A stretch of DNA of 64,000 nt, taken from positions 144,479 through 208,478 of the forward strand of contig JAFZKH010000009.1 in NCBI GenBank assembly GCA_017553685.1, written 5' to 3'. Made by a program: the position numbers and the translations under genes. The notes under the pieces were generated by a model. It worked only from the letters and a program-made list of their open reading frames with translations. It made no database searches and was not told the DNA's origin. Positions 125-34,794 of the stretch are shown one piece after another. The DNA comes from Bacilli bacterium (GTDB lineage Bacteria > Bacillota_I > Bacilli_A > RF39 > UBA660). Within the stretch, counting starts at the first letter, position 1; each line of letters starts with the position of its first letter.

Positions 125-1279
125 TTATATTTTTTTCTTTCTTCTAATAAAACCAATAATAATTAAAATGACTAATACTCCAAGTAATATATATCTAACC
201 TTTGGAGGTATATAAATAGTTACTTTTTTATTTAAGAATACATCTTTCTTATAGATTTCTTCTCCATCTGCTAAAACTATATAATTACCAAGTTTATCAC
301 CATTCTTATTTTTAGTAGTAACTTTAGTTAAACCATCATATTTATATTCTATTTCAGCATCTTTCATAACATATGCATAATAATCTTCATCATTTTTTAT
401 TTCGATTGTTTCACCAAAACTAGTTTTAACTTTAGCTAACACTTTATCTTTTTTAATAAGTTTTTTAACTTCATATTTATCAATATAAAAGTCCATTAAG
501 TGTTTTTGATCTAAAAAGTTTTGATTTCTATTATAATCATAATCAGCATTTAATGTTATTAATATGAATTCTTCATCACCATTTTTAATATAACTAGCTA
601 AACATATTCCTGCTTCATCAGTAAATCCTGTTTTAGCTCCCATTATATATGGTGCATCAAGGTCATTTGCTTTCTTTCTAGGTCCTTTTATTTCAAATTC
701 TTCGTCTGTTGTAGTATATTCTGCAGTAGTAAATATTTTTTTAAAATCTTTATTCTTTAAAGCATAATCTAATGCTTTATACATATCATATGCTGTGGAA
801 TATTGCCCATCTCTTTCTAAACCAATTGGATCTTTATATACAGTATCTTTAAGTCCAATCTCTTTTGCCTTTTCATTAACTAATTTAGCAAATTCTTCTT
901 CTGAAGGTGATACAGTTAATGCTAAGTATTTAGCAGCATCCCCTGCAGAATCTAATAATGTTGCATATAATAAATCATAATAAGTTAATTCTTCTTCATC
1001 TTGAAGACCAATAGTATATACATCATAATCTATTGATGATATCTTATCTTCATTTATAATTACAGTTTCATTTAAATCTTTAATATTTTCTATAGCCACT
1101 ATAGAAGTCAATATCTTTTGAAGAGATGCAACAGAAACATGTTCATCTTTATTCTTTTCATATACTACGGAATCAGTATTTAAATTAACTAATACTGCAT
1201 TCTTAGAATTAATCTCTATTGCTTTAACATTAAAGCATATAAAAAATATAAATAAAGCTAATAATATTTTCTTCTTCAT
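125..1279 (-). CDS. D-alanyl-D-alanine carboxypeptidase (peptidase S11, PBP5/DacF-like) with N-terminal signal peptide and C-terminal membrane anchor
   Basis: SxxK-like 'SLQK', 'LLDSAGDAA' and 'GAKTGFT' (KTG) motifs in penicillin-binding-protein order. N-terminal hydrophobic signal and C-terminal 'ILLGVLVILIIIGFIRRKKKI' anchor. Confidence 0.8.
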   Translation of the reverse strand: MKKKILLALFIFFICFNVKAIEINSKNAVLVNLNTDSVVYEKNKDEHVSVASLQKILTSIVAIENIKDLNETVIINEDKISSIDYDVYTIGLQDEEELTYYDLLYATLLDSAGDAAKYLALTVSPSEEEFAKLVNEKAKEIGLKDTVYKDPIGLERDGQYSTAYDMYKALDYALKNKDFKKIFTTAEYTTTDEEFEIKGPRKKANDLDAPYIMGAKTGFTDEAGICLASYIKNGDEEFILITLNADYDYNRNQNFLDQKHLMDFYIDKYEVKKLIKKDKVLAKVKTSFGETIEIKNDEDYYAYVMKDAEIEYKYDGLTKVTTKNKNGDKLGNYIVLADGEEIYKKDVFLNKKVTIYIPPKVRYILLGVLVILIIIGFIRRKKKI

Positions 1280-3795: not shown

Positions 3796-4222
3796 CTATA
3801 ACAAGTATACCATAAAAAAGAACCCTATACCATAATATATGGCAGGGTTCGCCTCGTTTACATTTGGTGCACCTGTTCAATGCGTTGAGAAATAATAAAA
3901 AGTTAATTTCCATTTTAATTATAACATAATTTTAAAAAAATAAAAGTACTTTTAATTAAGTTTTACAGTATGACTTGCTCCCTTAATATATATAAAAAGA
4001 ATATTTAGGAGCATTTATTACCTATATATAATAATGATCAAACTATAATAATCCCAAAAATTAGGAGCAATTTTGTAAGTACAAAATAAGATTGGTGTCA
4101 TATAATTTGTTATATTATAAAGAATTATATTATATAATGACACCTACATCTTATCCTGATAGAAAAAATACTTACAAAATTAAGCATTTTTTGGGAGCTA
4201 GGGAGCAAATAAAAAAGCTAAA

Positions 4223-5557
4223 TTATTTTATTAATTTAGCATGTACTATTATTCGTTTATTTCCATCATAACTAACTAATGTAAGTATGTTATCAAAGCT
4301 ACCTACATATACATCATAATCATAATTACTTTTCTTTCTAATATCTTGTATATAATTAGCATAATCTATTTGTTTATTAAAATTAATCTTTATATCATCA
4401 TTAGATTCATATGTAGAAAATACTTGATATCTATATTCAAAATTATCTGATACATAAGTTATATAATGATATTCTTTTTTCTTTTGCCATTTATCTGTTA
4501 ATACTTTAGATAAACTCCCAAACATATCATTATTATTACTTCCATATATAACTATATTCTTATCAGTACCATCTAATTTATTTCTTGAATCCATATATAT
4601 CCAACCTGATCTAGATTTCTTCTTCAAGAAATTATGTTCTTTATAATATTTATTATCTTTACCTTTAACTACTACATGATTAATATTAGTAGCATTAACT
4701 TTAACATATCCTACAGTATTTTTATTGAGCTTCTTTAATCCATTAAAATCAATATCATACTCTTTATATCCACCATCTAATACATTAACATATTTCTCAT
4801 TTAATTGATCATTTAAAGGTTTATAACTAACTATTTTAAATATAGAGAATCCTATTATTAAAATAAATATAAGAATTAATGCTATATAAACCCAATTCTT
4901 TAGTTTTCTTTTCTTAACTATTTTCTTAGGTCTTTCTTCTCTGCCAAATGCTCTTTCTTCAATAACAATAGGTTTATCTTTTATTTCTTCTTTAATCTCA
5001 GGTTCTTCTACTACAAACTCTTTTTCTTCTGGTATATCTAATATATTTGATTCTTCTAATACTTTATCTAATTCTTCTTCCACAGATAAATTAGATTCTT
5101 TTATATCTTTATCATCTTCAAAAACAACGTCTTCAGGTTTTATTTTAGTTTCTTCTTTTTTATGATTATTAAAAATATCTGTTAATGTATAAGAATTAGT
5201 ATATTCAAATTGTTCTTCACGTACTACTGGTTTAACTTCTTTCTTAACTGTAGTCTTCTTTGTAGAGCTTGTACTCTTCTTAGGTGTTTTAGTGGCCTTT
5301 TTAGGAGTTGTTTTCTTTGTAGTACTCTTTTTACTATTTGTACTTTTCTTTGCAGAAGTACTTTTTTTAGTACTTGTAGACTTAGTTTTAATTGTACTAG
5401 AACTTACAGTCTTCTTAGTACTTGTTTTAGGTTTACTAGAGTTGCTCTTCTTAGTACTAGTTTTAGGTTTACTAGAATTGCTCTTTTTAGTAGTATTAGT
5501 TTTCTTAGTACTTGTTGTTTTCTTTTTAGTAGTAGTTTTCTTTTTTTCTTCTGCCAT
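4223..5557 (-). CDS. sortase B-fold protein lacking the catalytic His and Cys (pseudo-sortase), with long K/T/S-rich basic N-terminal tail and one TM helix
   Basis: C-terminal ~200 aa align convincingly to SrtB ('GWIYMDSRNK', 'IVIYGSNNNDMFGSL', 'ILTLVSYDGNKRIIVHAKLIK'). His of 'YGH' is Ser, Cys of 'TLSTC' is Tyr, and the protein contains no Cys at all; Arg ('KRIIV') is retained. RBS 'AGGAAG' 7 nt before 'MAEEKKK', so likely start is 5557; the track ORF runs to 5584. Confidence 0.75.
   Translation of the reverse strand: MAEEKKKTTTKKKTTSTKKTNTTKKSNSSKPKTSTKKSNSSKPKTSTKKTVSSSTIKTKSTSTKKSTSAKKSTNSKKSTTKKTTPKKATKTPKKSTSSTKKTTVKKEVKPVVREEQFEYTNSYTLTDIFNNHKKEETKIKPEDVVFEDDKDIKESNLSVEEELDKVLEESNILDIPEEKEFVVEEPEIKEEIKDKPIVIEERAFGREERPKKIVKKRKLKNWVYIALILIFILIIGFSIFKIVSYKPLNDQLNEKYVNVLDGGYKEYDIDFNGLKKLNKNTVGYVKVNATNINHVVVKGKDNKYYKEHNFLKKKSRSGWIYMDSRNKLDGTDKNIVIYGSNNNDMFGSLSKVLTDKWQKKKEYHYITYVSDNFEYRYQVFSTYESNDDIKINFNKQIDYANYIQDIRKKSNYDYDVYVGSFDNILTLVSYDGNKRIIVHAKLIK
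5411..5482 (-). repeat. in-frame 36-bp tandem duplication (2 copies, 2 mismatches) encoding 'SNSSKPKTSTKK' in the pseudo-sortase N-terminal tail
   Basis: 'cttcttagtacttgttttaggtttactagagttgct' followed by a near-identical copy. Confidence 0.7.
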
Positions 5558-5617
5558 GATATCACTTCCTATCATATATATCATTATATCACAAAAAAAG
5601 AAGAGATTAATCTCTTC

Positions 5618-8600
5618 TTAATTATTAATTCCTATTCTAAATACTGGTGTTACTTGTCTATTATTGCTAACATTACTATTATATGTTGAACCACCAACTA
5701 TTACAAACCATACATTATCTGCATTTGAATGTGGTGTTCTTATCCACCATTGAATTTGTCCTTTTAATCTACCAGAATTAGAATTATTTGCTGAATAAAA
5801 ATCTAACATTCTTGTATCAGTAAGTGGATTATTCTTATTGTCAGCGGAATGAGTTAATCCTATTTCATAAGCTGAAGATAAATATATTTTGTTTAAATTA
5901 GTATCATTTTCAGTAATAATAGGAGAATCTCCAGAAGGACCTGAACCTGAAACAATTGGATACGTAGGAATAATAACTGATTGTAAATCAGAAGGTAACT
6001 TATTGTAAAAATCACTATTTAACCAAGTGGCTAATGATGAACCTGCCCAACCGCCAGCATTATTATTGACGGAATAAATATTTTTGTTTGAAACTGAATC
6101 AATAAACTCAATTACTATACCACAAGCAGTTTGAGAATATCCTTCTGTTTCACATACTTCTGGTTTTGATGTATTGGCAAGTCTTACTGTATATGATTCA
6201 TTTATTGAATCATTATCCATATCCATTTCCACTTCTTTTTCACAGGAATCTGCAAGATAATAGTAATTAGGATCACTATTAATATTGCTTATTATTGTAT
6301 TCCACGAATCAGTTGCAAACGATCTACATCTAAAGAACCATTCTGCATATAATGTAGTATTTTCAGATATTAAATTTGTTATATCCTGAGTATTATCATA
6401 ATGAATTCCTGTTCCGTCTGCTTTCGTATTCCATCCAATAAAATTATGTTTTGATCTAGTATATGTATTTGGATTTAATGATGTTGATACACCATATGTA
6501 AATACTTGATCAGGCATATCATTTCCAGAACCACCATTTTTATCATATGTTATAGTATATTGATTAGCATCCCATTCTGCATATAGTATTACTTCACCGT
6601 CTATATCTAGATTCTTAACTAGTTGTTCATTATCATAGTGTGTTCCTTGTCCATCACTTTGTGTGTTCCATCCTAAGTAATTATAACCTTCTCTAGTATA
6701 AGTATTAGTATTTAAATTAACTTCTTCCCCATAAGCTATTTCTTGGTTAGGCATTTGATTTCCAGAACCACCATTTTTATTGAATACTACATGATATGGT
6801 GTTACTGCCCATTCTGCATATAATGTAATATCATTTTCACTCATTGTATTTGTTACATCTTGTTTATCATCATAATGTGTTCCTTGTCCATTTGCTAATG
6901 TATTCCATCCTGCAAATGCATAACCTGTTCTTGTATATTGATTTTCATTTAATAAATTATTTGGTATATCAAATACAATTATTTGTGCGCTCATTGTTCC
7001 TGTTGCATTTGGATCATCTGTATTTATATCATAAGTTATTGTATATTGTTTTGGTTCCCATATAGCATATAATTCTAATTCTCCAGAAGTTACTAAGTTA
7101 GTTACTTCTGCTTGATCAGAATAACTTGTTCCTGAACCATCTTCTTCTGTATTCCATTCAACAAAGTTATATCCTGTTAATTCAAATCCTAATTGATCTA
7201 GATTAACTGTTGTATCATATGTTATTGTTTGTGGAGACATTCCTCCAGTTGCTCTATCATCATTTTTCTTAAATACTATTCTATAATCATTAACATCCCA
7301 CTCTGCATATAATGTTGTATTATTAACAAATTCATTTGTTATATTTTCTTGATTATCATAATGATTACCTAAACCATCTGATTGTGTATTCCATCCTGAG
7401 AATGTATATCCTGGTCTAACATAAGCATTTTGTTTTAAGTATGTATTAACATCATATGTAACTGTTTGATTAGTCATTGTTCCGGTTACATGAGTATCAT
7501 CTGTATTATCATCAAATGTTATTGATATAGATTTTGGTCCCCATTGTGCATATAATGTTATTTCTCCATCTATATCTAAGTTCTTAACTGATTCTTCATC
7601 ATCATAATGAGTTCCTGTTCCATCAGATTCAGTATTCCATCCATAGAAATTATATCCTGTTCTTGTAAATCCATTTGGTGATAAAGTAAATGTTGTATTA
7701 TATGGTTTTGATTGAGATGCAGTTGTTCCTGTTGCATTTGGATCTGGTGTATTTATATCATAATTAACTGTATATGGAGTTGCTCCCCATCTAGCATATA
7801 AATTAACTATTCCAGATTCTGCTAAATTATTAACTGTTGCTCCATCTTCTATTTTAGTTCCTGTTCCGTCTGCTTTAGTATTCCAACTATCAAATGCATA
7901 TCCTTGTATAGTAAATCCATTACTTGTTAATGCTTTTGTTGTATCATATACCATTTCTAAATCACTCATAGAACCGTCTGTTATTAATGTAGTTCCTGGT
8001 TCTACTACTATTGATGCATCATTAATATTAAAATGTATTGTATATGGATTAGCTTTCCAAGAAGCAGTTACTGTCTTATCTTCATATATAGGTGCTGTTA
8101 TATCAAAATCTGTATTATCTTCATTTACCCATTTATCTATATGATATCCTGTTACTGTTGGACTTGGTAAACTATCGATTGTTTCACCATAATTAATTGC
8201 TTTTGTTGTTTCTGTAGTTCCATCATCTAATGTTACTATTATTTTATCATTTAAAGTATATGTACTAACTAATGATAAATCAAAAGTTAGTGTTGAAGCT
8301 GCTTTTGCGATTATAGGTAATGTTATTAAACCTATTAACATCATATTTAATGCTTTTTTCTTCTTTTTAGAAGTAGCTATTGATGTTACTAATCCAATTG
8401 ATGAAATAATTAACATTATATAACTTATATGAATATTATCTCCTGTTTTTGGATTAATTATTATAGTATCAGTTTTCTTTTCACCTTCATCTAAATATTT
8501 AATAGTGAATTTAACTGTATTATTTTGTGTTCTTTTTGTTATATCATTTACTAATGTTTTATAAATTGCTTTAACATCAAAGTTAAGTGTTCCATTTGCA

Positions 8601-8971
8601 CTTATTTTTTCATTTTCATGTTTATCATATTCATAATCTATAAAACTATTCTCATTATCATCTGTTATATCAAGTATTGTTATTTCTCTACTTAAATTAC
8701 TTTTAATAACCAATTTATAAGTTACTGAATCATTTAATTTATGAAATTCAATATTATTAATTACTTTATCATCAGTAAAGTTTGTTATTGTTCCTGTAAC
8801 ACCATCTGATTTATCTGATAGAGTTGCACCTGTTATTTTAAATGCGCTTGTTTCAGCAAATGCATTAATACTCATAAATAAAGACACGACAAATAGCACA
8901 GCAAATAATACTGTGAATAGTTTTGATTTATTAAGTTTTCTTTTAACTACTGTTTTAGCCATATCATGCAC
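5618..8971 (-). CDS. composite secreted protein: signal peptide, ~130-aa domain, internal NPKTG-TM-KKKKK cell-wall sorting signal, second signal-peptide-like segment (AKA|AS), ~8 Listeria-Bacteroides (Flg_new, PF09479-like) repeats, Cys-containing C-terminal domain
   Basis: Repeats of the form 'YTV.FD.N......P......Y.......N.(Y/F)TR.GY.F.GWNT..DG.G..Y......N......LYAEW'. 'NPKTG' at 8441-8455, followed by a hydrophobic stretch and 'KKKKK' at 8354-8368, then 'MMLIGLITLPIIAKAAS'. Confidence 0.75.
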   Translation of the reverse strand: MHDMAKTVVKRKLNKSKLFTVLFAVLFVVSLFMSINAFAETSAFKITGATLSDKSDGVTGTITNFTDDKVINNIEFHKLNDSVTYKLVIKSNLSREITILDITDDNENSFIDYEYDKHENEKISANGTLNFDVKAIYKTLVNDITKRTQNNTVKFTIKYLDEGEKKTDTIIINPKTGDNIHISYIMLIISSIGLVTSIATSKKKKKALNMMLIGLITLPIIAKAASTLTFDLSLVSTYTLNDKIIVTLDDGTTETTKAINYGETIDSLPSPTVTGYHIDKWVNEDNTDFDITAPIYEDKTVTASWKANPYTIHFNINDASIVVEPGTTLITDGSMSDLEMVYDTTKALTSNGFTIQGYAFDSWNTKADGTGTKIEDGATVNNLAESGIVNLYARWGATPYTVNYDINTPDPNATGTTASQSKPYNTTFTLSPNGFTRTGYNFYGWNTESDGTGTHYDDEESVKNLDIDGEITLYAQWGPKSISITFDDNTDDTHVTGTMTNQTVTYDVNTYLKQNAYVRPGYTFSGWNTQSDGLGNHYDNQENITNEFVNNTTLYAEWDVNDYRIVFKKNDDRATGGMSPQTITYDTTVNLDQLGFELTGYNFVEWNTEEDGSGTSYSDQAEVTNLVTSGELELYAIWEPKQYTITYDINTDDPNATGTMSAQIIVFDIPNNLLNENQYTRTGYAFAGWNTLANGQGTHYDDKQDVTNTMSENDITLYAEWAVTPYHVVFNKNGGSGNQMPNQEIAYGEEVNLNTNTYTREGYNYLGWNTQSDGQGTHYDNEQLVKNLDIDGEVILYAEWDANQYTITYDKNGGSGNDMPDQVFTYGVSTSLNPNTYTRSKHNFIGWNTKADGTGIHYDNTQDITNLISENTTLYAEWFFRCRSFATDSWNTIISNINSDPNYYYLADSCEKEVEMDMDNDSINESYTVRLANTSKPEVCETEGYSQTACGIVIEFIDSVSNKNIYSVNNNAGGWAGSSLATWLNSDFYNKLPSDLQSVIIPTYPIVSGSGPSGDSPIITENDTNLNKIYLSSAYEIGLTHSADNKNNPLTDTRMLDFYSANNSNSGRLKGQIQWWIRTPHSNADNVWFVIVGGSTYNSNVSNNRQVTPVFRIGINN

Positions 8972-9365
8972 CTCAAAAACTATAAATATGCCTTCCCTAT
9001 CTTAGATTATAATTCAATATAATTATATCAAAATCCAAAAACTAGAACAATACAAATAAAGAAAAAATACACTATTTTTTATAAAAGTGTAAAGTGGACA
9101 ATGATACTGTCTTTTTATGTAAATTAGAAGGACCATATATAACCATAATATATACCTGATTGTGTATATGTTTTAATGCAAAAAACATAAGAGCATAAGA
9201 GATTGTCCCCATGATTCTTGGAATCTGTTATTTCATAACAAATTTAATGGGGACAAACTTATTTTGCACTTGCAAAATTGATCCATCTTTATGGATATCT
9301 TTTATGCTTATTCCTTTATTTTATAAAGAAAAACTGTGGATTAAATTATGGTCATATTTTTATTG

Positions 9366-11231
<1,866 letters not shown>

Positions 11232-11378
11232 TCATTAAACTAATACCTTTAACTCCTTTAAATAATCATTATAAGTTTTAATATATTTCAGCAAATTCAT
11301 AAATTACCACCTTTTTCGGCTATATTTCCTTTACTTGGCTTTATATATTAATCTTTTTCTATTAAAAAGTCAATAGTA

Positions 11379-11663
11379 TTAGTTTTGATGAGTTTTTATA
11401 TAATTAGACAATTCACTAAATGGAATTGATTTTTCTAGTGTATTTATATAAACATCATCGCATTCATTGAAGAATAAATATGTATTATTTTGTATTTTTA
11501 GTTTATGAGGATTGATGTAAGCAAGATTAGTTTTATCTATATTTATTATTTCTCCTTCAATAAGTTTCCCTTTAAGATTAAGAAACATTAATAAGTTCTT
11601 TACTCTTTTATTTAAAGACTCCTCAATCTCATATTTTTCCTTAATAATTTGCATACCAATCAA
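11379..11663 (-). CDS. hypothetical small protein between tmRNA and the recombinase
   Basis: 94-aa ORF starting immediately after the tmRNA terminator. No recognisable domain. Confidence 0.35.
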   Translation of the reverse strand: MIGMQIIKEKYEIEESLNKRVKNLLMFLNLKGKLIEGEIINIDKTNLAYINPHKLKIQNNTYLFFNECDDVYINTLEKSIPFSELSNYIKTHQN

Positions 11664-11684
11664 CTCCTTTCATAGCAAAATAAA

Positions 11685-11709
11685 AAGGTTAATTGGAAAT
11701 TAACCTTTT
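11685..11709 (-). terminator. intrinsic terminator of ssrA (aaaaggttaa...ttaacctttt)
   Basis: Perfect 10-bp inverted repeat with flanking A/T runs, directly 3' of the tmRNA CCA end. Confidence 0.6.
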
Positions 11710-11744
11710 ATATAAAAGTCGATTGGTTCGACTTAAAATCACTC

Positions 11745-12117
11745 TGGTGGAGCTGAGGGGAATCGAACCCCTGTCCAAAATGGTTCATATTTAGGTACTA
11801 CAGGCTTAGCTAATTATAAAGATTCCTAAATTACTAAGTAATTAACAACAAATAATTTAGTAAGTCTATAAGATTCTTTATTATTTCTAGACTAAATAAT
11901 AATATATTCTGCTAAAACGAACCTTCTAAAACCTACGCAGAAAATAGATAGTAGAAAGTGCACTCACTAATTATTAAGCTAAAGCAGCACTATTAACTCT
12001 GAATAGTGATGCGAATGCGTTTGAAATTTTGTTTGAAATTATTTTTTAAAAGACTTAACGTGTCACTCCGGCCTGCACCTATAATACTAAGCAAATTGTC
12101 GAAGCCAATACAGCCCC
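11745..12117 (-). ncRNA. ssrA: tmRNA (transfer-messenger RNA, SsrA)
   Basis: The reverse complement begins 'GGGGCTGTATTGGCTTCGACA' and ends 'GGACAGGGGTTCGATTCCCCTCAGCTCCACCA' (T-arm plus CCA). The internal tag ORF ends '...AALA' followed by TAA TAA. Located directly downstream of smpB. Confidence 0.9.
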
Positions 12118-12159: not shown

Positions 12160-12606
12160 TTACCTATAATTTTTAAGTGCTCTAGCAGTCTCTCTGTCTG
12201 TGTCTCTTCTTTTAATTGCTTCTTTTTTATCATAAGTATGTTTACCTTTAGCAACTGCTATTTCTAATTTTGCTATATTTCCTTTTAAATATAGTCTTGC
12301 TGGAATAATAGTATATCCTTTTATTTCTACTATTCCTTGTAATTTATTTATTTCTTTTCTATTAAGAAGTAGTTTTCTAGTTCTAGTTTCTTCTAGATTA
12401 CTAGTACCTTTATCATAATTAGATATATGCATATTAAGAACAAATACTTCATTATTCTTAACTAATACATAACTATCTTTTAAATTACAAGATCCTTTTC
12501 TAATAGATTTGATTTCATTACCAGTTAAAACAATACCTGCTTCATATTTTTCTAGTATTTCATAATCATATCTAGCTTTTCTATTTAGTATTTCCATGTT
12601 TATCAC
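12160..12606 (-). CDS. smpB: SsrA-binding protein SmpB
   Basis: Typical SmpB sequence ('[10 protein letters not shown]', 'GNEIKS', '[10 protein letters not shown]'). Position upstream of ssrA. Confidence 0.95.
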
Positions 12607-16301: not shown

Positions 16302-19300
16302 TTATTGATTACTAACATCTGATTTTCTTTTTAATACAAACATTATAGAAAGTACTGCAATTATAGATATAGCTATAAGCAGATAATTAACTTTCATTAT
16401 ACCTGTTTGAATTGTAATTACTAATGTAGCTACTGAAGATGCAGACATATGACCAAAATCAGAAATAATATTTTCTTTAATATTTGGACTTAATGTTCCA
16501 TCATCATATATAGTAAATTGTAATTCAGTATTATAATTATCAACTAACTTATATTCTCCAGCATCTAAATCATTTAAGTAAATTCTACCTTTAATAGGTT
16601 TTAAATCAGTTGTTTTTCTACCAATTGTATATTTTCCAGCTCCATCTGGATTAACTTTAACTAATTCATAAGAACTTCCTTCATACTTATATAAGTTATA
16701 AGTCTTAGAAGTATCTAACGCATTACCATCTTCCATTCTAGTAATAATTATATCTTTACCATTATCATTTATACCAAATATACTTGATAGTAATTTAGAT
16801 ATATTTGATTGTAAATCTTCACCATTTCTAGAACCATTTCTTAATGTAATGTTATCTGGAATAGTAAATCCATTATCATTAATATTATGGTAATTTAAGT
16901 TAATGGTTAATGAGTATTGTGGATCTAGTACTAAGTCTTCAGTTAATTCAACAGAGAAGTAGAATTCATCACCAATCTTAACTTCTGGACATCCGTTTTG
17001 TTCAGTATAGTTTTGAACACTAGCATTAATAGCTTCTTGAAGAGTATTATAACAAATACCTTGTACACAAGCTATCTTAGTATCAACTTCTTCAGCATGT
17101 TTTAAGTACATAATATGTTTACCAGTTAATACGCCAAGTTCATCATATTCAGGAGATGCATATGGAATAAATCCTGTTTCTACATCATCAATAGTAGCAT
17201 CGATTACTATACTCTTAGTACTCTTGAAGTATCCATCATAAATCTTTACAAATGAATCATATCCAGATGATGTAATAGCATAACCACCATTATTAGTTAT
17301 TTTTGGTGAGTTAGTATTAACTATACCATCTTTAGTACCAATAGTTAATTGTCCCTTATTAGTTATAGGTCCTATTTCTCCACCAAGGATTGTAGCAGCA
17401 CCATGGTAATTAGTTATAGTAATTGAACCAATAGTACCATTATTAATAGTAGCTTCAGTACCTCTATCAGAATCAAGATTTAAATATCTGATTACTCCAC
17501 CATTAATAGTTACATTTGAATTATATACATTATTTATTCCATTAACAGTTCCAGAATTAATAGTTAATGTATCATGATTTTCTACATAATATAGAACTTC
17601 AGTACCATCTAATACTAGTTTTTCACCATTTATTATCTTTTCAACAGTACCACCAGTTAATGTTAAATCATTATTAGAATTTCCTGCACTAGTACTTAAA
17701 TTCTTAATGTAAGCACCTGTGCCTAATGAAAGTGACATACTAGAGTTTTCTAAAGTTGAAATTGTAGAATTAGTTATATTCATAACTCCATCGTTACCAC
17801 TTGAGTGATGATGATAGTTTTTATAGTAAGAACCTGTTGTATTACTAATATTTGCTGTACCATCTTCTTCATTAACAATGTTCTTTACTTCACCACCAGT
17901 AACATTTAAAATAGCATTACTTGGATTATCCCAATCACTATTTGCAACACTTTCTACAATACCATTAGAGATATTTGCAGTACCAAAGTTGTTAATCTTA
18001 TCAATACGTCCTTCAACTACATTTAAAGTTCCAGAAGTATTAGTAACACTTAATACTCTACCTCTATCATTAGTATTGTCAGCAATGTAAGCTTCATCAG
18101 TTACTGTTACTGTACCAGAAGTTATATTAAGATTTGCATCTAATGTTTTACCATTTAAATCTAGAATAATACCTTTATCAACAGTAATATCATAATTACT
18201 TGTTACTTCAGATACTGTTTTAACTAATTGAAGTTTTTCACCATCTGCAGCATTAGATATTGCAGTTCTAATTGATGAATAACTTACATCTTGATCAATA
18301 TTCTTAATTACTTCTTCAGTATTTATTAACATGTAAGGTCCACCATTTGGACGATATATAGTAAAGTTTTCTTCTTTATCAGTAAAGTGACATAAATTAT
18401 TTTCATCTAAGAATAAACTTCCACCATATAAATTGAATTCTAAATCATCTCTATTCTTACATGAAGCGGATGAAATATACATACTAGATTCAGCAGTATC
18501 ATCTTTCTCGCCCATTGTAATTGTACCAACTTCATTAAACAATTTAGATATATAACCACCAGTTTGTGTTACAGAACCTTTAACATGATTACTATAACTT
18601 TGATATAAAATAATAGCATATTTATAATCACTATCAGTTCCATGATTAACTGATCCACCAGACATTACAAAGTTACCACCATCAATTTCAATAGCAGCTA
18701 CAGTATAATCTAATCCGCTTTGACCAGAATGTTGATATGGAGCCTCACAATGATAATATCTATAACCATTATCATAAGTATAATCACAGAAATGTTTAGT
18801 AGGCATCTCATTATCAAGACTTATAGTATTACTATCAAAGTATACTGTTTTATTAGGACCTATATACACAGATGCATTATTAATAGCAAAATATCCATGT
18901 TCAAATTCCTTTTTAGATTCATAATGTGGATAGCCTTTAAATTCTTGTCTTGTAGATGTACCATCTGAACAAGAATTAATAGCACTATATCCAACATAAT
19001 AATTAGTAGGATTATATCCTTTTGAAGTAATGGTTGATGCAGTTATTGTTGAATCCAAATAACCAGTTCCATGATATCCTTCACCATATGTATAAATATT
19101 TGCATTAATTAATGTAGTTTTACCAGCATCATCAATACCTTTTCTAGCACCAAATATAGCACCAGTATATGTTAAATCACCAGTATTTGTAATTGCTGTA
19201 TCATAAGCAGCATCTATTACACCTTGATTAAATACCATTGTACCAGTATTTTCAATACCACTTTCAGCAAACACACTTAAAGTAGAAGCATTTATAGTTC

Positions 19301-22300
19301 CGGTAACATTATTAATAATTACTTTACCTGCTACAGCAGCTTTTTCAAGGTTATTATATGAATCTAGCTTATATGTCTCAATAGTAGAATTACTAATATT
19401 TACTGTACCACTATTTAATAATGCAGTATATGTATAATCACTATCAAAATATAGGTTACTAATATTCATAATAGCATTTTCATTATTAATAATTGATTCA
19501 GATAATGCTTGATGAATATTCATACCAGGACTACTTTGAATGTATTCAATAGCATCCTCTAATGATTGATCTGTATGTACTTTAATATATGTTGGATTAT
19601 AACAACTTGTACTTGTTGCATCACCAGTTATACTTAAAGTTCCATTATTTGTAATTACATTTGATTGATATGAAATAAAGTCACTTCTATAAATGTCCAT
19701 TGTTCCATTATTTTCAACCATAGTTTTATTAGCTTTAATATTTCTTACAGAGAATCTATTAAGAGTCATTGTTCCATTATTAACAATAGCACTTGTTTTA
19801 GACATTACATCTAATATTGGATCTGTTCCAGAATTTGGAACTACAGCACCATAGATTGTAATATTACCATTATTAATTAGGAATGGTCTTTCTATAGTTT
19901 CACCTGAATTTGAATCATAATAAGCTGTATTATTAATCTTAATATTATTTTGACGAGCAGTCATATTTGAATGTACAAATGATCCAGAACCATCATATGG
20001 TTCAAATTCATCTTGTGATGTAGTTGTAAGTGGATCAGTTGGAGGATTATCACTCTCGTAATATCTATAATATATTGGTTTATAATCAGCAGTACCATAG
20101 CTAAAGTATAAACTAAACTTCTTATCAGCAGCTACTACTAATGAAGGAGTATCTGAGAAGTTTGTATAATCTCTTGTCCAAATCAATTGATCATCTGTAT
20201 TGGCTTCATCAAATGCTTCTTGAGCATCATAATAATACTTTCCTGTAGTATAGTTAAGAACTAAAGGTAAAATATCAAGATATTTTTCTTTTGGACTCTT
20301 TAGATTATCAAATATAACATCATATCCTGTTTCAATATCTTCAATATGATAGTCTATTGGATTACTACCAGCTTTAAATACACCATCATAGAAGTATAAA
20401 TTGTTTTGAGCATATGAAGAACCAGTTTCACTTATACCAAAAGTTCCACCTCTAATTTCAGGTTCTGTTTTAGAAACATTTAATGTTTCTGTACCAGGTT
20501 TTAAATCACCCTTAGTACCAACAGTAACATTAATACCAGAACCATCTTTAACAAGAATTGCAGTATCAGATGTATTAATCTTACCACCAGTTATATTAAT
20601 AGTATGTCCACTACCTGTAGCAAGTAATGAACCATTAACAATTCCATCTGTTTGGTTATATTCATTACCATTACCTACAATGTTAAATCTTAGGTTATTA
20701 TATTCACCATCATTAATATTAACAATACTCTTAGATTGATCTTGATCTATTGTAGTATAAATTCTACTCTTTGATGATTTTCCACCAAACTTAGAATTAT
20801 TTAAGTTAAGAGTTGAATCAACAAATCTACCTAAGTTAGCTTCTATAGAAATATTGTTATATCTTGAATCATTATCAACATTAAAGTTAGTAATATCAAC
20901 AACAGAATTATGAGTATTAAATAATTGTTTTGTATGTTTAGCTTCTAATTCTGTAGTAGAATCAGCATAATATGCTTCATATGAGCTATTATCCTCTTTT
21001 GTATAGAAGTAACCACCACCAACAGTAACATTAGTATTATTTGCATAAATAGTATTAGCATTATACTCACCATTATTAATAGTTAAATTAATTTTTTCTT
21101 CACCATCAGTATCAGATATAATATCTAATCCTGTAGATGTAACATTATCAATAGTAAGATTAGCTTTATTCTTAACTAAGTTACTTTGAGTATAGTTATT
21201 AATAAAGTTACCACCATTAAATGTCATAGCATTATTATTTTCAAATGCAGTTTGACCTATAACATATATAGAACCACTACCAGTTACATTTAATGTACCA
21301 TTATTTGTAATTAGAGAATCTCTACTATATGAGTTAACACTAGCACCATTAGCATAATTAATAGTTAATGATTTACCTTCAGGTATTGTAACTCTATTAG
21401 CAGTATTATAATTACCAGATATATTAATAACTGAATTATCTGCAGCATTATTAATAGCTGTTTGTAATGATTTATATCCTGTACCATTTACTTCTACTAG
21501 ATTTCCTCTAGAAGAACTATCTATAGTATCAAGAGTAACTTTACCATTACCATCATATAAAACATCATATCCATCAGTTAAATCACTAATAGGTATATAA
21601 ACAACATTAGTCATATTACTACTTGTTGATGTATTTTGAATAGTTCCATCATAGTATTTAATATCACATAAGTTATCTGAATTATTTGGATATTCAATAG
21701 ATTTAATTAAAGTAGTTCTTAAATCATTACCATCTTGATATATTGTAACTAAATTACCAGATGTATCTTTATATATTCTATTATTATCTATTTCAGGTTC
21801 AAAGTATGAAGTAATTCCATTTCCTTTTAATTCAAAATCATCCATACCAACTGTACCCATTGGGTGACAATCACCAGATATTGCATATGAATCATTTGTT
21901 GATATAATAGTTGGACCTTCATTTACATTACCATCATCATCACCAATTGTTAATGATGTTCTAGCATAGTTATATGCACCAGGTTGATTAGTTTCCCAAG
22001 CATATAAGTTATAATAATAATATTTTAATAAGAATGGTATGTTTTGAATAGCAGATTTATTATTACCTGTGATAACACTATCACCTTTTACAGTTAAATT
22101 ACCACGATTCATAACACTTGTTGGAACAGTAACTCCATCTAATACCATATTATGTTCATTTAATAGCATTTCATTATTTATTGAACCACCTGTTATATTA
22201 GCAGTTCCTTTTAAATCTTTACCCGCATGAATATCAGGATTAAAATATTTATCTAGTTTTTGGCATTCACCCATATGGTTATAATATTCTGCACAACTAT

Positions 22301-25300
22301 ATTGAGATACTACAGTATGTAAATTATATAATTTACCATAAGATGCTCCATTAGAGTTTAATGTACCCATATTGTAAATATTAGATATTGATCCACCAGT
22401 TATATTAGCTTTATCAAAGTTTAATATTACTGGAGAAGTAGTATTACCTGTTATTGAGGAAGTATTATTTTCTTCTTCAACTACATTAAGAGTACCTGAA
22501 TAGTTAACTATTTGATTAGGTGTTACAACTGTATTATAAATACTTAAAGTTGGATTTTCACGATTATATAGTTTGCTTTGTTGGTATGCAACATATGAAT
22601 CATTTTGATAAATTGAATCAAATGTTACACCATTATATAAATATGCATCACCATAGTTATTGAATAAACCTGCTAATACTGTTCCATCATCAGTTTTAAC
22701 AGTTCCTTCATTAAAAATAGAACCACTAAATCTATTGTAGTATTCAGTATTACTATAATATGAATATTTATATGAAATACTCTTAACACTAATTGAATAT
22801 GACTTATCATAAAGAGATGAATTTACTTTATTAGTAGTATCAGGTCTATTATCATAATTCATATAATCGCAAGAATAATATCCAAGTCTTTCATTAACAT
22901 CAATATTAGATGAATGAATTCTTAATTCAGTATTAGGTTCAACATATACACCTATACCAATTTTACCTTCAATATCTATATTATTAAGATCATGACTTCC
23001 AAGATTATATTGAACACCTATTGTATCAAAACTTCCTTCAGTAGTACATGAAGTTGTATTTAATTTTATTTTTAAATTACCATTGTTTACTATATCACCA
23101 TCTAGGTTATAAATACCTATACTCTTTGATTTATCAACATTTATAATAGGTGAACTTTCAGCAATTATAGTTCCTTCATTATAAATACCATATTTTGAAG
23201 TAACTTTAACTTTTACATCTCTTAAAGTTAATGTTGAATTATTCATATTATGAATAACTCCAGTACCAGAACCATTAGATAATTCTGACATACCTTCTAA
23301 ACTAGGTTCTGTCTTAACATTATATGTTTTAGGTAAGTTTTCTCTTAATTGTTCTATTTCATCACCAACAATTAATGAAATCTTAGCAAATCCATCGCCT
23401 TCATTACCATACATTGTACCAGTACCATCATGTGTTGGTATACTTAATGTACCAGATGTAGTAGATCCGCTTAATAAGAAGTGGTTTTCAACAAGGTATC
23501 CAGAAACTGGTTGAGTTCCAGTAGGTAAATATACAAATCCAGAACCTCCACCTCCACCATTGTCGTCATCACCAGATGAATCAGGTGTAGTATTACCTCC
23601 ACCAAACCAGCCACCGCCGCCTGCGCCGCCGTAGCCGCCAGCTTGATCCACTCCATCAGCACCAATACCAAAACTTGCATTAGTACCAGGAGCGGTTTGA
23701 GTACCACCATCACCACCAGTACCAAATCCACTAGTATCAGCACTTGAACCAGTAGCACCTCCACCGGCACCACCAGCTTGGTATCCACTACCATCAGATC
23801 CACCGCCACCGGCAACTATAATTCTGTTAAATGGTGAATTTCCTTCAACTCTTATATCAGTAGCTCCACCACCACCGTTATAAACTTGTCTAGCTCCACC
23901 ACCATTGAATCCTCCTTCAGGACCACCAGTGTTACCAGATCCACCTACATATATGTAAATAGTTTCGCCTTCTTTTAATTCAACTAGACCTTCAGAGTAA
24001 CCTCCGTTACCACCATAAACAGCATTTATTCTATATCCACCTTCAGCACCCCAAACTTGAAGTCTATATATACCTGTTTGAGGAACAACATATTCTTGAG
24101 CAGCACCAGTATAATTAAAATCAACAACTGATGTTGGATCAGGATTATCTAAGTTAATACCAAATTCATCTAAATAATCCATAAGGTGATCTAGTTTATA
24201 TTCTTCACTGACTGTACATCCGTCACATAATCCAGCATATTCTTGATATTCAGCTAAATCATCATCATATGTTTCCAATTTTCTTTGATATTTTGTATCA
24301 ACTAGAGTTAAATTACCGTAATTCTTAATTACATAATCATCACCAGTAGATAAATCATATCCATTTAAGTCTAATATAACTTCTTCACTATAATCAACTT
24401 CTAATGCTTTAGTTGTACTAACAGATCTAAGTAATTGAACAGTATCAACATTTTCATTAAATTCTCTTATTTCTTTTACTGGATGATATTCACTAGTAGT
24501 ATTACTTGTGTTCATTTCTTCAACTTTTAATGATAATGTAGATCCATTATTATTATATGTAACTACTTGTAGATAATGAACTTTACCTTTTTCTAAAGTA
24601 AATGTTGGTCTATCTTCAAATTTATAATAGTTACTTGGTAAAGTATATTTCCAGTCATCATAGATAACTCTATATGCCGATAAATCTATAATAGGTATGT
24701 TTTCACTATCACCAACTGTATATACATTTCTAGAACCACCATTATAAATAAGCGAATATGTTTTATCAGAAGTAGACTCAGTTAAATCGATTTTAAATAC
24801 TTTAACTGCTATATCTCCATTTTCAGCATTTAATGAATTATATGTATCAGTTTCATCATCATATTCAAAACCATAAAGTGTATTAGTATTTGCAAACACA
24901 GGTTCACTAGCATTTCTCTTAACAACATATGATTCTTCTTCTCTTGTATTTGCAACATCTACTGTTCCAGTAAATATTGTTGGACCACCAATTGCCATAA
25001 ATTGATCATCTATTGGATTTAATCGAATATTATATAAAGAATAACCCCATTCATAATATGACATATAATTATAACGATAATGGTAATATGGACTTGAGTA
25101 TTCTTCATAGTCATATCCACCACCACTAGCTATATGTAAGTAATATATTTTGCCTTTTTCTAATACTACATTAAAGCTACTATTAGATGTCTCTAAAGTC
25201 TTTGCTCTATTATTGTTTAGTTCTTCTTGAGATAAAGCTCTATTATTATTTGTTAAATAGAATCTATTTTTACTATAATCTCCTGTACTACCATCTAAAT

Positions 25301-28300
25301 ATAATACTTGATCCTTATCATAATTTGTTAAATCAATTTTGATATATGAATCTTTATAACTATCTAAAGGATTAAATGCATTAGTATTTGCAGCATATCT
25401 ATAATTAAATACACCATTAATATAGTTTCCTTCAAAGTCAGTTGCTTTATATGTTTTAATATCAGTTATTTCAATATTTGGATATCTTTCATATGTATTA
25501 TTATCAGGTGATTTTGCTTTTACTCTTAGTTCATATTCATATCCACCTGGTAGATTATAATAAAGGTATCCTTCACAATATTCAGAATAGCAATCGTTAT
25601 TATATTGTCCACTTTCTATAGCTATAAGATATTCTTTTCCATCTTTTTCTCTCTTTTGGAAGATTCCTAAATAGTTTCTATCACTTGTAGAATTATAATA
25701 GAATTCATCATGAACCATATCACCAAGAGTAGATCCAGAAGTTTCTAAATAAATATAACCTGAATAATAACCATTTGTATATGCTTTTGTATTATTATAA
25801 TTGACTAAAACTGTTTCTCCTTGTGGATCATTTGTTAAATCAATTGTCGCATATGTATATGTAGATTGATTTGCTTGTGTATTGTTTGTAGTAATAGTTT
25901 TACCATCTGATTTTAATACATAATCTCCGCTTGAGTTATTTAATAAATCAGTCATAATATTATTACTTGTTTCATCCTTATTATAATTTAATAAATTACT
26001 TGAATCTCCACGTTTATATACATCAATAGAATTAATAATTAATTGATCTTGACATCCTACACTCTCAAATTCTTGTCTAGTTGGATAAGTGTCAGGATTC
26101 TTAACCATTTTTTGATATTGTATCTTTAGATAGTATTTTTTACCACCCTCTAAAGAAGTATTTCCATTTCTTGGACCATAAGTAGCATATCCAGCACGAA
26201 TATTGCTATCACCCATGTCTCTAATAATATCTCTATTAGAACCATAGAATTCTCCAAGCCAGTTTCCACTGGATGGTCTTTTATCTTCTCCAACATACAT
26301 TTGAGCATATGAAAGAGCTACTGTAGATGAATTATCCTCATAGTAACTTTCCATAGTATAATTAACATTTACATAATAATAGCCTTCAAGACCAGTTAAA
26401 TCAATTTCAATAACACCATAAGCTACACTTGTTTCTGCAACATATTGATTATTTGATCTAATTGTTCCATCAGTAGAATCATAATAGAATCCATATTCTT
26501 TAGTAGAAATTTCAGTTTGAAGTTCAACATTATTAGATACCTTATCTAAATCAGATAAAGTAATATCATTAATAGTTGCTTCACCTAAATATGTACTATA
26601 TTCACTATTACGGTTTTTAAAATATTGTAAATCAAGATAATACATTTTACCTTTTTCAAGTTCAAACGAATAATTTTCTGAATCATGACGATATGGAGCC
26701 ACATGATCTCCTAAAATATTTTTAGTATAATCATCTATTTCATGTACATCAAATATATAATAATTCTCTCCATATACTGGTCCAGAACTAGTATCTTGGC
26801 CATTTATAAAACTAATTGTTTGGTTATCTCCATTAACTATTTCAGGTGTATAATCAATGCTTAATACTTTATTATTTGTTTCATTAGTTAAATCAATTAT
26901 TACATGTGAATTAGTTCTTTGTGCATATCTATTTCCTGAGTATGAAACTAGAGTATCTGTATTATTATCATATACAAATTTATATGTTCCTACAGATTGA
27001 ACATCTGACATAATTGATTTAGGTTCATTATCAGTATAAATAGTTGTGTTACCTCTATTGGCATCATCCATAGCAGAACCAAGCTTAGCATAATAAACTG
27101 AGTTATTAATTCTTGCTTCTGGAGCAGTTAATCTATTTAATGTAACTACTTGATAATTTGTACCACTAATAGTTTCAATATTTGATACAGCTTCATATGA
27201 ATATTCTGTTCCTGTTACTTTACCATTAACAGCACCAGAACCTACAATTGAACTGTTAGGAGATACAATTCTTCCATCAAATATTGTTAAATATCCATTA
27301 GTTTCACTTTTAATACCATTAGTTTCACCATAAACATATGGTTTTGTAGTAGATACAATTGAACCATTTACTTTAACATCAGAATAACCTTCTCCTAAAG
27401 TCATATGGCATCCTGCTTTATTTAATAAAGCAATACCAGTACTATTAACTAATTTACCAGGTTCTTCTCCTTCTGGAGTACTTTCTATTAAAGTAAAACT
27501 ACCATTATTTTTAATAGTATATTCAGGTATAACACCTGCAACAATCTTACCATTTAAATCTAATGTTAAATCTTGTCCTTCTAATACTTGAACACTTTCA
27601 TCTGTACCAGTAACCATTTGAATAGTACATTGAACATTTTTACAATCATATAAATCTTCATAATCAAAAGCTTCTGCTAATGATTCAAAGTTAATATACT
27701 TATCTTCTTTTGGTACAGTAACTTGATTGGTATCAGGATCTATTGTGTCTTCAAACAATTGATTATTATAACCAATTAATCTAGCTACTATTCTAGGAGT
27801 AGTAGTAGTTGCTTCTAGTTCATCACTAAATACATAGTTACCAGCTTTATCAAACGCTTTTATTTTAAATGTATATGTAGTTGATGGAGCAAGTCCAGTA
27901 ACCATATAAGTACTAACTCTTTCAGTAGGATAATTGTTTCTACAAGCTTCATATCTTTCAAAAGTTGTTTCATTATAACATTCAAAACGTTTTTCTCCTA
28001 CTTTAACATTGTCTTGATATATTTCATAATAATTGATTCCAGATTCATTATCTGATGAATTAACATTTAAAGTTACAGTACTCTTATTAGCAGAATTTAA
28101 ACTAAATAGAGTAATAGTAGGATTTAATTTATCAATATTTACTATTTGATGATTAACAACTGTACTATCTACATTTTGTTTAGATGCTTTAGCAGTTATA
28201 GTAGTATTTTCTTCTACTTCAAATGGTTGATAGTAAGTATTATAATTATCTGAACCAATCTTATATAAATAACTATAACCTGTATTGTCTAATAAATTAG

Positions 28301-30918: not shown

Positions 30919-32733
30919 TTATTTTATTATATAAAGACTATATTTTTTGTTCTTTTTAATAATCAAAAATGAACTGTTAGATTCTTCATTATAATCAATA
31001 CTAATTACTTCAGATTTTTTAATCTTTTTGACTAATTTTTTCTTAGAATTATATACTTTTATAATATTATCTTTATTATTTGAAACAATTATTAATCCCT
31101 TATTAGGAACTATTGGAGTTCCATCAGAATTATTAACGCTTTCATTGTTATCAAGATTGAATGAAATCTTTGAATTATCTAATAAACTATATAAATTTAC
31201 CTTTCCTTTTTCAGTATGAAGAATATATTTATCTCCAATAGAAATACCTGATTCTTCTATAGGTATTTTTTTGAATAATTTACCCTTGTTATTAAATATA
31301 TACATATATTCTTCATTATAGAATCTATATAAATTATAGATTGACAAATCATCTAATAACGCTAAAGTATTATCATCATTTAGTAGTTTCTTTTCTTTAG
31401 ATGAATATAATAATACATTTGATTTACCACCATTATCATCAATTAATTCATCTTGATCTACAACAACAATATTATTTGATGAGCTTACTATTGTTTCACC
31501 TTTATCATCAAATAAAGCATATGTACCATCAGAATACATTACTACTTTATAACCATTCTTATACTCTCTATATTTCTTAACATCTTTATCACCAGTTAAT
31601 TTTAGAGAAACTGTATTATCATATGGATTATAAACAATTATTGTCTTCTCTTCACAATAAGTTTTAGAGCATCCTATTTCTAATCTAGCTTCTTTTAAAT
31701 CATCATAAAGATTATATACTTCTACTTTCTTATCATTTCCTTTAAAATCAAATACTTTATTAAAAGTATCAGTTTCTAATTCATATGTACCAAATGAATT
31801 ACCAAATACAACTAATATACCTTTTTGATCATTATTGATAATACTATCATCAATAATAGTGTATCCCTCAATTACTTTATCAGTTATATTGCCTTTTACA
31901 CCTAGTTCTTTCTCTTCTTTACCGTTTATATCTAATACATATTTCTTAGTAGAATTATTAATTCTTTTGCTAATTAATAATTTATTATCAGATAAAACTA
32001 TATAAGAATTAAATGAGTCTCCTACTATCTTATAATTATTTACATCATAATAGAAATAAGATCCATTTTTATCTTTAATAACTAAATAATCTGTTTTATT
32101 ATCAGTTTTAACTTCTTCAACTATTTCATAGTCATCAAGTATTCTGTTACTATTTTCATCAATAATAACTAAACTATTAGTTTCAAATGTAATAATCTTG
32201 TTATCATTGTAAAATTTAATATCTTTAACATCTTTATATAGTGTATTTCCTTTATAATCATAAATAGTAAAATAATCATCTTTTTTACCATATAGATATT
32301 TATCTGTTATTGGATATAAAGTATATTCTTCTTCTTTTAATACTTCTTTACCCTTAGAATTTAATACAATATATCCATGTGTATAATTCTTTTTATCTTT
32401 TAATGCAACTATAACATATTTAGTAGATGCATTAACAGGTTCCATTCTTAAGTCATCTTCTGAATAATCAACATCATATTTTGATATTATCTTACCATCT
32501 GGATTAACCACGCTTATTTGAGTTTTACCTTTTTTATCACCTTTATATGCAACCATATAATTACACTCATTATTAATACAATTAATATTATAATATTTAG
32601 GCCCTAAAACTTTTGATACTCTTGTTACTATATCTTCTTTAGTTCTATTAAAAATAATTAAAAGTACTAAAGCTAATACAATAATTAATCCAATAGCAAT
32701 TAAAACAACCCTATTTTTAAATATCTTTTTCAT
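30919..32733 (-). CDS. membrane-anchored extracellular repeat protein (paralog B of tandem pair)
   Basis: N-terminal TM 'VVLIAIGLIIVLALVLLII'. Clear paralogy with the 32754..34718 product ('NCINNECNYMVAYKGDKKGK' versus 'VECLDTDCNYILASKGDKYGE'; conserved Cys pairs). Tyr/Asp/Lys-rich beta-strand repeats. Confidence 0.6.
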   Translation of the reverse strand: MKKIFKNRVVLIAIGLIIVLALVLLIIFNRTKEDIVTRVSKVLGPKYYNINCINNECNYMVAYKGDKKGKTQISVVNPDGKIISKYDVDYSEDDLRMEPVNASTKYVIVALKDKKNYTHGYIVLNSKGKEVLKEEEYTLYPITDKYLYGKKDDYFTIYDYKGNTLYKDVKDIKFYNDNKIITFETNSLVIIDENSNRILDDYEIVEEVKTDNKTDYLVIKDKNGSYFYYDVNNYKIVGDSFNSYIVLSDNKLLISKRINNSTKKYVLDINGKEEKELGVKGNITDKVIEGYTIIDDSIINNDQKGILVVFGNSFGTYELETDTFNKVFDFKGNDKKVEVYNLYDDLKEARLEIGCSKTYCEEKTIIVYNPYDNTVSLKLTGDKDVKKYREYKNGYKVVMYSDGTYALFDDKGETIVSSSNNIVVVDQDELIDDNGGKSNVLLYSSKEKKLLNDDNTLALLDDLSIYNLYRFYNEEYMYIFNNKGKLFKKIPIEESGISIGDKYILHTEKGKVNLYSLLDNSKISFNLDNNESVNNSDGTPIVPNKGLIIVSNNKDNIIKVYNSKKKLVKKIKKSEVISIDYNEESNSSFLIIKKNKKYSLYIIK

Positions 32734-34658: not shown

Positions 34659-34794
34659 GATAACATCACCATACTTACACCCTTCTACTCTATTATTTAA
34701 ATTATAACATATTGGCAATATATTTTGTCATTTTTTTACAAAAAAATATAACTTTTTTAAAAGAAATTTTAGTTATATGATATAATTACAATAG

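Follow-up and report, generated by a model that had tools for sequence, protein, structure and literature searches.

A conserved N-terminal module with an internal sorting signal and a putative second signal peptide in B-repeat proteins of gut Bacilli

Gene 5618..8962 and the layout of its product

The window analysed here, a stretch of 64,000 nucleotides (nt; GC content 27.4%) from contig JAFZKH010000009.1 of a Bacilli bacterium, contains on its minus strand an open reading frame (ORF), 5618..8971, which runs from a signal peptide and a small domain, through a sortase sorting signal, into a second signal-peptide-like segment and a long array of B-repeats. The ORF list counts 1117 codons from GTG 8971, and this GTG numbering is used for residues throughout. 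The true start is almost certainly ATG 8962 (M4), preceded at 8 nt by GAGG; GTG 8971 overlaps this sequence, the only Shine-Dalgarno-like one read in the DNA. The complete gene, 5618..8962, encodes 1114 amino acids (aa) plus stop, and the 1114-aa product is deposited as MBR4830942.1, 'InlB B-repeat-containing protein [Bacilli bacterium]'.

All features of the product are encoded on the minus strand. Residues 4-39 (8855..8962) read as a Sec signal peptide, with a basic n-region, a hydrophobic core and a predicted cleavage site AFA|E; all family members carry a hydrophobic segment at this position, and the AlphaFold model places a helix at 15-37. An Ig-like beta-sandwich domain of about 130 aa, seen in the model and conserved in the family, spans residues 40-172 (8456..8854). 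It is followed by the sortase motif NPKTG with its P2' Asp (residues 173-178, 8438..8455), identified by motif census and alignment, by a hydrophobic helix, the putative stop-transfer segment of the sorting signal (residues 179-201, 8369..8437; 180-200 in the model), and by the basic, presumably cytoplasmic loop KKKKK (residues 202-206, 8354..8368), encoded by aaaaagaagaaaaaa. Pentapeptide, helix and lysine tail are the parts of a sorting signal, which would be expected at the C-terminus of a protein; here it is internal, and its internal position is conserved in the family.

The 911 residues found after KKKKK open with a second hydrophobic segment (residues 207-224, 8300..8353), recognized in the alignment as a candidate re-initiating signal peptide, with a Pro at -6 and a predicted cleavage site A-K-A|A. 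The sequence across the junction is ...IIINPKTGDNIHISYIMLIISSIGLVTSIATSKKKKKALNMMLIGLITLPIIAKAASTLTF.... A conserved first B-repeat domain (residues 227-307, 8051..8293), matching Flg_new at residues 249-303, lies directly after the predicted cleavage site and is part of the module shared by the whole family. The array of Flg_new (InlB B-repeat) units at 6332..8227, which makes up the variable cargo, was detected by Pfam PF09479 in 8 stretches (E=2.3e-70; 233 bits against a cutoff of 27). The protein is closed by a DUF6273 domain (residues 961-1113, 5633..6091; PF19789, E=2e-16), with no C-terminal anchor after it.

The first-pass annotation of this DNA had described a single ORF in which an internal sorting signal precedes a signal-peptide-like segment and Flg_new repeats, an arrangement borne out by the reading of the DNA and by conservation in the family; its coordinates for NPKTG (8455..8441) and KKKKK (8368..8354) are right, the repeats are those found by Pfam, together with the C-terminal DUF6273, and the topology it suggested, stop-transfer followed by re-initiation of export, is self-consistent.

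The module as such escapes current annotation. Residues 1-230 of the ORF have no Pfam match, no Pfam or NCBIfam model covers either the Ig-like N-terminal domain or the module, and residues 174-206 give only a sub-threshold match to the LPXTG anchor model of NCBIfam; the name 'InlB B-repeat-containing protein' hides what lies ahead of the repeats.

A structure model was obtained by AlphaFold from a 42-sequence alignment (mean pLDDT 83.9); a run based on 6 sequences was poor (pLDDT 57) and was set aside. The model consists of an Ig-like sandwich at 44-167 (pLDDT >90), a hairpin of two helices at 180-200 and 205-224, and a B-repeat starting from 231 (pLDDT >90). Values of pLDDT below 50 are confined to residues 170-177 and 223-227, which coincide with the two proposed cut sites. 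Foldseek comparison of the region after the second site identified the InlB B-repeat 2y5p, with a target-normalised TM-score of 0.8, while the N-terminal domain returned only generic matches to Ig-like sandwiches.

Conservation of the module and integrity of the reading frame

The extent of the family was evaluated by an exhaustive profile search, in which residues 1-241 were compared with 1.84 billion cluster representatives (50% identity). At thresholds of E<=1e-3, 1e-10 and 1e-30, the numbers of matching clusters were 1356, 682 and 242. The best 150 hits are proteins of up to 3392 aa in which the module matches over its full length within the first ~245 residues, always at the N-terminus, and in nearly all of these hits the match extends through 'LYDK', within the first B-repeat. 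Two stretches of the N-terminal domain, FH..ND and Y.YDKH.N, are near-invariant or invariant. The hairpin composed of helix, basic loop and second segment was recognized in 127-142 of 154 family sequences, and a motif of the form x-P-x-T-x-x, located right before the first internal helix, in 147 of them; this arrangement of motif, helix, loop and second segment is far beyond chance.

The census of these 147 motifs gave N (94), V (23) or T (10) at position 1 and K (57) or N (46) at position 3; the Pro is near-invariant, the Thr is present in 146, and position 6 is Asp in 121. Position 5 is G in 90, N in 18 and S in 13, with the rest scattered. In the 42-sequence alignment Pro and Thr are each found in 41/42 sequences and Asp in 40/42. 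The SrtB of B. anthracis recognises NPKTG and requires a P2' Asp, and the test substrates of the C. difficile and Listeria enzymes are PPKTGDS and NPKSSDS (PMC11987632). At the sequence level, the family consensus N-P-[K/N]-T-[G/N/S]-D, P2' Asp included, matches these class B sortase substrates. The same signal is found in a canonical setting on a related contig, where a B-repeat protein with an ordinary signal peptide carries INPKTGDNI, helix and basic tail as a normal C-terminal signal, 'IINPKTGDNIMKYLVLLLISLIGLGYTGYKFKLKTKKTQ*'. Related bacteria thus use C-terminally what the ORF carries internally, which argues that the two are sorting signals of the same kind.

The elements following the motif are similarly regular. 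The first internal helix has a median of 21 uncharged residues across the family, the basic loop a median of 8 residues with a net charge of +4, and the second segment, shorter than the first helix, a median of 16.5 uncharged residues. At the end of the second segment, Pro -6 (P219) is kept in 34/42 sequences, V/A -3 (222) in 37/42, Ala -1 (A224) in 40/42 and Ala +1 (A225) in 30/42. The resulting family pattern, V-K-A|A with Pro -6, fits a predicted signal peptidase I site; within the junction, conservation is highest at this -3/-1 AxA site and at the sortase motif.

Behind the constant module the cargo varies. Flg_new was found in 35 of 42 scanned members, followed by DUF285, Fib_succ_major, DUF6273, LRR and SH3_5. 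P0009 (L017:3082-6795, L018:509-4222) is 92.6% identical to the window protein over the first 797 residues, beyond which it carries DUF285 repeats in place of DUF6273. The cargo can therefore be exchanged, and recombinational swapping behind a constant N-terminal module is suggested by the comparison. Among 117 long members, only one ends in a hydrophobic C-terminal segment, and that one has no basic tail.

Some variants of the motif region were also recorded. The first motif residue (N or V) co-varies with other positions of the module, defining subfamilies. In some members two sorting motifs precede the helix: P0052, P0060 and P0068 read VPNTG-x-NPNTGD, and the L009 sequence (6229-6990), on a contig labelled Saccharibacteria, reads VPDTGDDDAVVPDTG. 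These recall the 'doubled motif LPXTG anchor' of NCBIfam.

The first-pass annotation had left room for a different origin of the junction, in which two ordinary genes had been joined by loss of a stop codon, or were made to appear joined by a homopolymer sequencing error or by slipped-strand phase variation of the A-tract encoding KKKKK. The arithmetic behind this suggestion is right, since deletion of one A yields KKKKKH followed immediately by TAA, with ATGATG following in the original frame. The comparative data, in contrast, speak uniformly against it. The identical protein is encoded, in the same frame, on 10 contigs from independently assembled ruminant-gut metagenomes, and 6 assemblies agree exactly in the junction DNA, GCTACTTCTAAAAAGAAGAAAAAAGCATTAAATATGATG, two of them coming from the relative with the 92.6%-identical protein. 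The longest homopolymer in the tract is A6, a short run of a kind that is ordinary in a window holding 144 A/T runs of 6 or more, and the tract is missing from homologues, whose basic loops read, for example, KKGKNKK, DRRNSHKK or DKDRDKKK. Phase variation is therefore unsupported.

A recent fusion is similarly contradicted by the homologues, all of which, as far as examined, pass through the junction in one frame, with no stop between the basic loop and the following segment. This was found in 14/14 of the homologues recovered first (27-58% identity), two of which are broken elsewhere, at sites unrelated to the junction; five metagenomic homologues (27-51% identity) and eight loci from metagenome-assembled genomes (MAGs) labelled Bacillales, Bacilli, Tenericutes, Erysipelotrichaceae and, in two cases, Saccharibacteria, all show it. 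The fusion extends to hundreds of clusters which have no A-tract here. In the 42-sequence alignment the two Met residues following the loop show no conservation, so that there is no conserved internal start, and no ribosome-binding site precedes it. Two separate genes, by whichever of these routes, are thus an extremely improbable explanation of the locus. The module looks rather like the outcome of an ancient event in which a small sortase substrate was fused in frame to a secreted B-repeat protein.

Sequences resembling separate or interrupted forms were evaluated individually. The only divergent contig, P0005, 885 bp long, might have represented a frameshifted short form; its sequence beyond the A-run is unrelated DNA, with no frameshift, and the contig is thus either chimeric or broken. 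Among the hits to the family, short ones of 146-244 aa were considered as stand-alone anchor genes and turned out to be fragments, ending inside helices or in junk rather than at clean gene ends. The apparent split of P0001 corresponds to a run of N in the scaffold, downstream of the junction. An in-frame TAA inside the N-terminal domain was observed at L009:6226-6228, on a contig labelled Candidatus Saccharibacteria, and marks either a pseudogene or an assembly error.

Proposed processing and its alternatives

Both teaching and computational annotation treat sortase signals as C-terminal elements. Only one exception has been described, the streptococcal Zmp/IgA1 group, and accounts of its processing still speak of putative sites and of a proposed secretion model; in the literature searched, N-terminal LPXTG motifs were found only in connection with this group. 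The Zmp/IgA1 proteases (ZmpA, ZmpB, ZmpC, ZmpD; MEROPS M26), with an N-terminal LPXTG, two hydrophobic segments and a second signal-peptidase site, represent the closest known design. The location of their motif has been called atypical and needed for localisation (PMC3518915), and for the second segment a role as another 'signal peptide' has been proposed (PMC3518915; PMC9637739). The ORF family shares the entire layout, i.e. signal peptide, near-N-terminal motif, two hydrophobic segments and a predicted second signal peptidase site. There is no homology between the two groups: Pfam finds only Flg_new, Flg_new_2 and DUF6273 in the ORF, and no Peptidase_M26 (HExxH) or G5 domain, so that the protein is Zmp-like on paper but outside that family.

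Further differences concern every part of the design. The motif is of class B type, NPKTGD, in the ORF and LPNTG in Zmp; LPxTG proteins of S. pneumoniae, including IgA1 protease and ZmpB, depend on SrtA. A folded, conserved Ig-like domain precedes the motif in the ORF, a short stretch in Zmp. The cargo of the ORF family is adhesin-like (B-repeats, DUF285, DUF6273), that of Zmp is a protease. The ORF family comes from uncultured Bacilli of rumen and gut, along with two Saccharibacteria-labelled contigs, in contrast to the streptococcal hosts of Zmp. Canonical class B substrates, such as IsdC (NPKTG/NPQTN), C. difficile CD0386 (PPKTGDS) and Listeria Lmo2186 (NPKSSDS), resemble the ORF in combining the motif and its P2' Asp with a helix of about 20 residues and a basic tail; their signals are C-terminal, whereas 911 residues lie beyond that of the ORF. 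Listeria InlB is held at the surface by its C-terminal GW modules. The ORF family has no GW module and would rely on the N-terminal module instead; what it shares with InlB and other Flg_new surface proteins are the B-repeats of the cargo (Pfam; 2y5p).

Taken together, these observations favour, with a probability of roughly 0.6, one intact, ordinary gene encoding the precursor of a surface protein, whose N-terminal anchoring module would be processed by sortase and signal peptidase. In the proposed pathway, the first signal peptide, cut at AFA|E, would export the ~130-aa Ig-like domain. NPKTGD, a 21-residue helix and KKKKK would act as a complete class-B-type sorting signal, the helix halting translocation and the lysines staying in the cytoplasm, and the second hydrophobic segment would re-initiate export, delivering the ~890-aa B-repeat/DUF6273 cargo. 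A class B sortase, encoded elsewhere in the genome, would cut NPKT|G and link Thr176 of the Ig-like domain to peptidoglycan, while signal peptidase I would cut AKA|A (A224|A225), freeing the cargo from the membrane hairpin. Lacking a separate anchor, the cargo would then be either docked non-covalently, through the first B-repeat, on the wall-bound Ig-like domain, or shed.

Active class B sortases, with the His, Cys and Arg residues (H-C-R) in place, are common among the homologues retrieved, one of them being named 'class B sortase [Bacilli bacterium]', and peptidoglycan is made by the organism, as indicated by a Peptidase_S11 DD-carboxypeptidase at 125..1279. A gene adjoining an active SrtB in a related contig was considered as a substrate and rejected, being a lipoprotein.

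Several points weigh against the processed precursor. Element order, conservation and fit to the enzyme consensus are observed, while cleavage at either site, attachment to the wall and what becomes of the cargo are inferred from them; the suggestion of the first-pass annotation, that one precursor gives two products, is accordingly favoured by conservation and by the Zmp precedent, with actual cleavage and cargo release remaining conjectural. Retention of the cargo by docking is purely conjectural, and mutual information between the N-terminal domain and the first B-repeat is dominated by subfamily structure (e.g. N173 with P219) and is no guide to contacts. No catalytically competent sortase is encoded in the 64-kb window, and a tblastn search with the sortase-like protein encoded next to the adhesin detected no sortase gene within 6 kb of eight genomic homologues, so that a neighbouring sortase is no general feature of these loci. 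At position 5 of the motif, 39% of the members have a residue other than Gly, in most cases N or S, with F, Y, K, H, W and further residues making up the remainder; this is looser than in any characterised sortase substrate set.

The main rival is a membrane anchor in the form of a helical hairpin, in which the second segment stays uncleaved and tethers the cargo to the membrane, the Ig-like domain being either transferred to the wall or also left attached. Helices 180-200 and 205-224 do form a helix-loop-helix in the model, the basic loop obeys the positive-inside rule and, for a cargo with no other anchor, an uncleaved second helix would explain retention without docking. On the other hand, conservation within the junction is strongest at the end of the second segment, where it follows exactly the signal peptidase I pattern (Pro -6, V/A -3, Ala -1, Ala +1); the segment is as short as a signal peptide, the site falls in a disordered linker of the model, and cleavage at this point is also assumed in the Zmp literature. 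Sequence alone does not decide against the tether, which is regarded as possible, though clearly less probable than cleavage. A different objection is that NPKTGD might be a vestigial relic of the old fusion, no longer used for transpeptidation, with the domains displayed on the membrane or released by signal peptidase alone. The high variability of position 5, the dead catalytic site of the neighbouring sortase homologue and the lack of a sortase near other loci would all agree with such a relic. Against this, Pro, Thr and P2' Asp are retained at 95-98% among sequences which are only ~30-50% identical. A separate subfamily, including the two 'Saccharibacteria'-labelled homologues, has [V/I]P[D/N]TG instead, as expected if the motif tracks the sortase of the host, and a related genome employs the same signal at a C-terminus. 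A relic is therefore considered improbable, more so than the tether.

A tentative extension of the processed-precursor reading, 'anchor and dock', is doubtful enough to be put forward as speculation. The Ig-like domain would be a wall receptor for the first B-repeat of its own cargo, resulting in a two-piece adhesin with cargo exchangeable by recombination, and in some lineages a pseudo-sortase, described below, would bind NPKTGD as a chaperone or gatekeeper. If it were true, gut Bacilli would be displaying surface proteins in a new and widespread way, and a tractable model would be at hand for the N-terminal anchor of Zmp.

Whatever the fate of the cargo, the logic so far described only in the Zmp/IgA1 group recurs here in an unrelated, much larger family of at least 242 and up to ~1350 clusters (50% identity) from rumen and gut Bacilli, characterised by a class-B-type motif, a folded, conserved N-terminal domain and an interchangeable adhesin cargo. 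If the proposed processing is true, predictors of surface proteomes must seek internal sorting signals, a natural two-product precursor becomes available for study, and a pseudo-sortase with a possible non-catalytic role has been identified.

The neighbouring pseudo-sortase and recombinase genes

The gene downstream of the adhesin, 4223..5557 on the minus strand, is annotated 'class B sortase' (MBR4830941.1), and encodes a class B sortase homologue without catalytic residues. It scores 116 bits against TIGR03064, the cutoff of which is 153.75, and is homologous to SrtB structures; in the alignment to PDB 2oqw, Ser stands in place of the catalytic His and Tyr in place of the Cys, and no Cys is present anywhere in the protein. 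Lacking both residues, it cannot be the transpeptidase. It belongs to a clade of 8 pseudo-sortases, in which the 7 relatives are 71-93% identical to the window protein; His and Cys are missing from all of them, and the Arg varies (R/Q/L/K). The H-C-R residues are kept in 113 other sortase homologues of about 245 aa. The protein also features a cytoplasmic tail of about 220 aa, rich in K/T/S, and one transmembrane segment. Long, low-complexity tails rich in Lys/Thr/Ser, resembling that of the pseudo-sortase (window 4900-5557, minus strand), were also observed at the N-termini of two adhesin family members, P0004 and P0012, before the first hydrophobic segment; if these tails are real, this segment follows an unusually long cytoplasmic n-region.

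A weak terminator-like hairpin (5598..5619, minus strand; 9 pairs, 3 of them G-C, then TTTTTGTG) overlaps the stop codon of the adhesin gene and separates it from the sortase-like gene, whose longest ORF begins at 5584, 13 nt after the hairpin. The two genes may be only partly co-transcribed.

Immediately upstream of the adhesin, on the same strand, a large serine recombinase is encoded at 9366..11222 (Pfam Resolvase and Recombinase). The order recombinase, adhesin, pseudo-sortase recurs in L013-L015 and L019-L021. In a more distant relative with the same gene order, the N-terminal module is missing from the adhesin, which starts with an ordinary signal peptide and has its sorting signal, INPKTGDN, at the C-terminus. 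The region 4223-11222 may represent a mobile or recombinase-serviced adhesin cassette, located beside smpB (12160..12606). A search for tRNA and tmRNA genes that could serve the recombinase as integration sites was negative, and megablast comparison of positions 4000-12000 with phage and plasmid collections gave no match.

A scan of the ORFs of the window for x-P-x-T-[GNAS] motifs followed by a helix revealed no further sorting signal. A 4840-aa ORF at 16302-30824, minus strand, contains Flg_new, fn3, CarboxypepD_reg and an ALK/LTK glycine-rich domain, and ends in '...ITIQTGIMKVNYLLIAISIIAVLSIMFVLKRKSDVSNQ', a sorting-signal-like tail (xxQTG, helix, KRK) which has no Pro and was therefore not counted in the scan. 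Two adjacent genes on the same strand, 30919-32733 and 32754-34718, encode proteins of 604 and 654 aa, with no Pfam match, an N-terminal membrane anchor and a similar Cys-x-x-x-Cys-N-Y stretch; they are probably paralogues.

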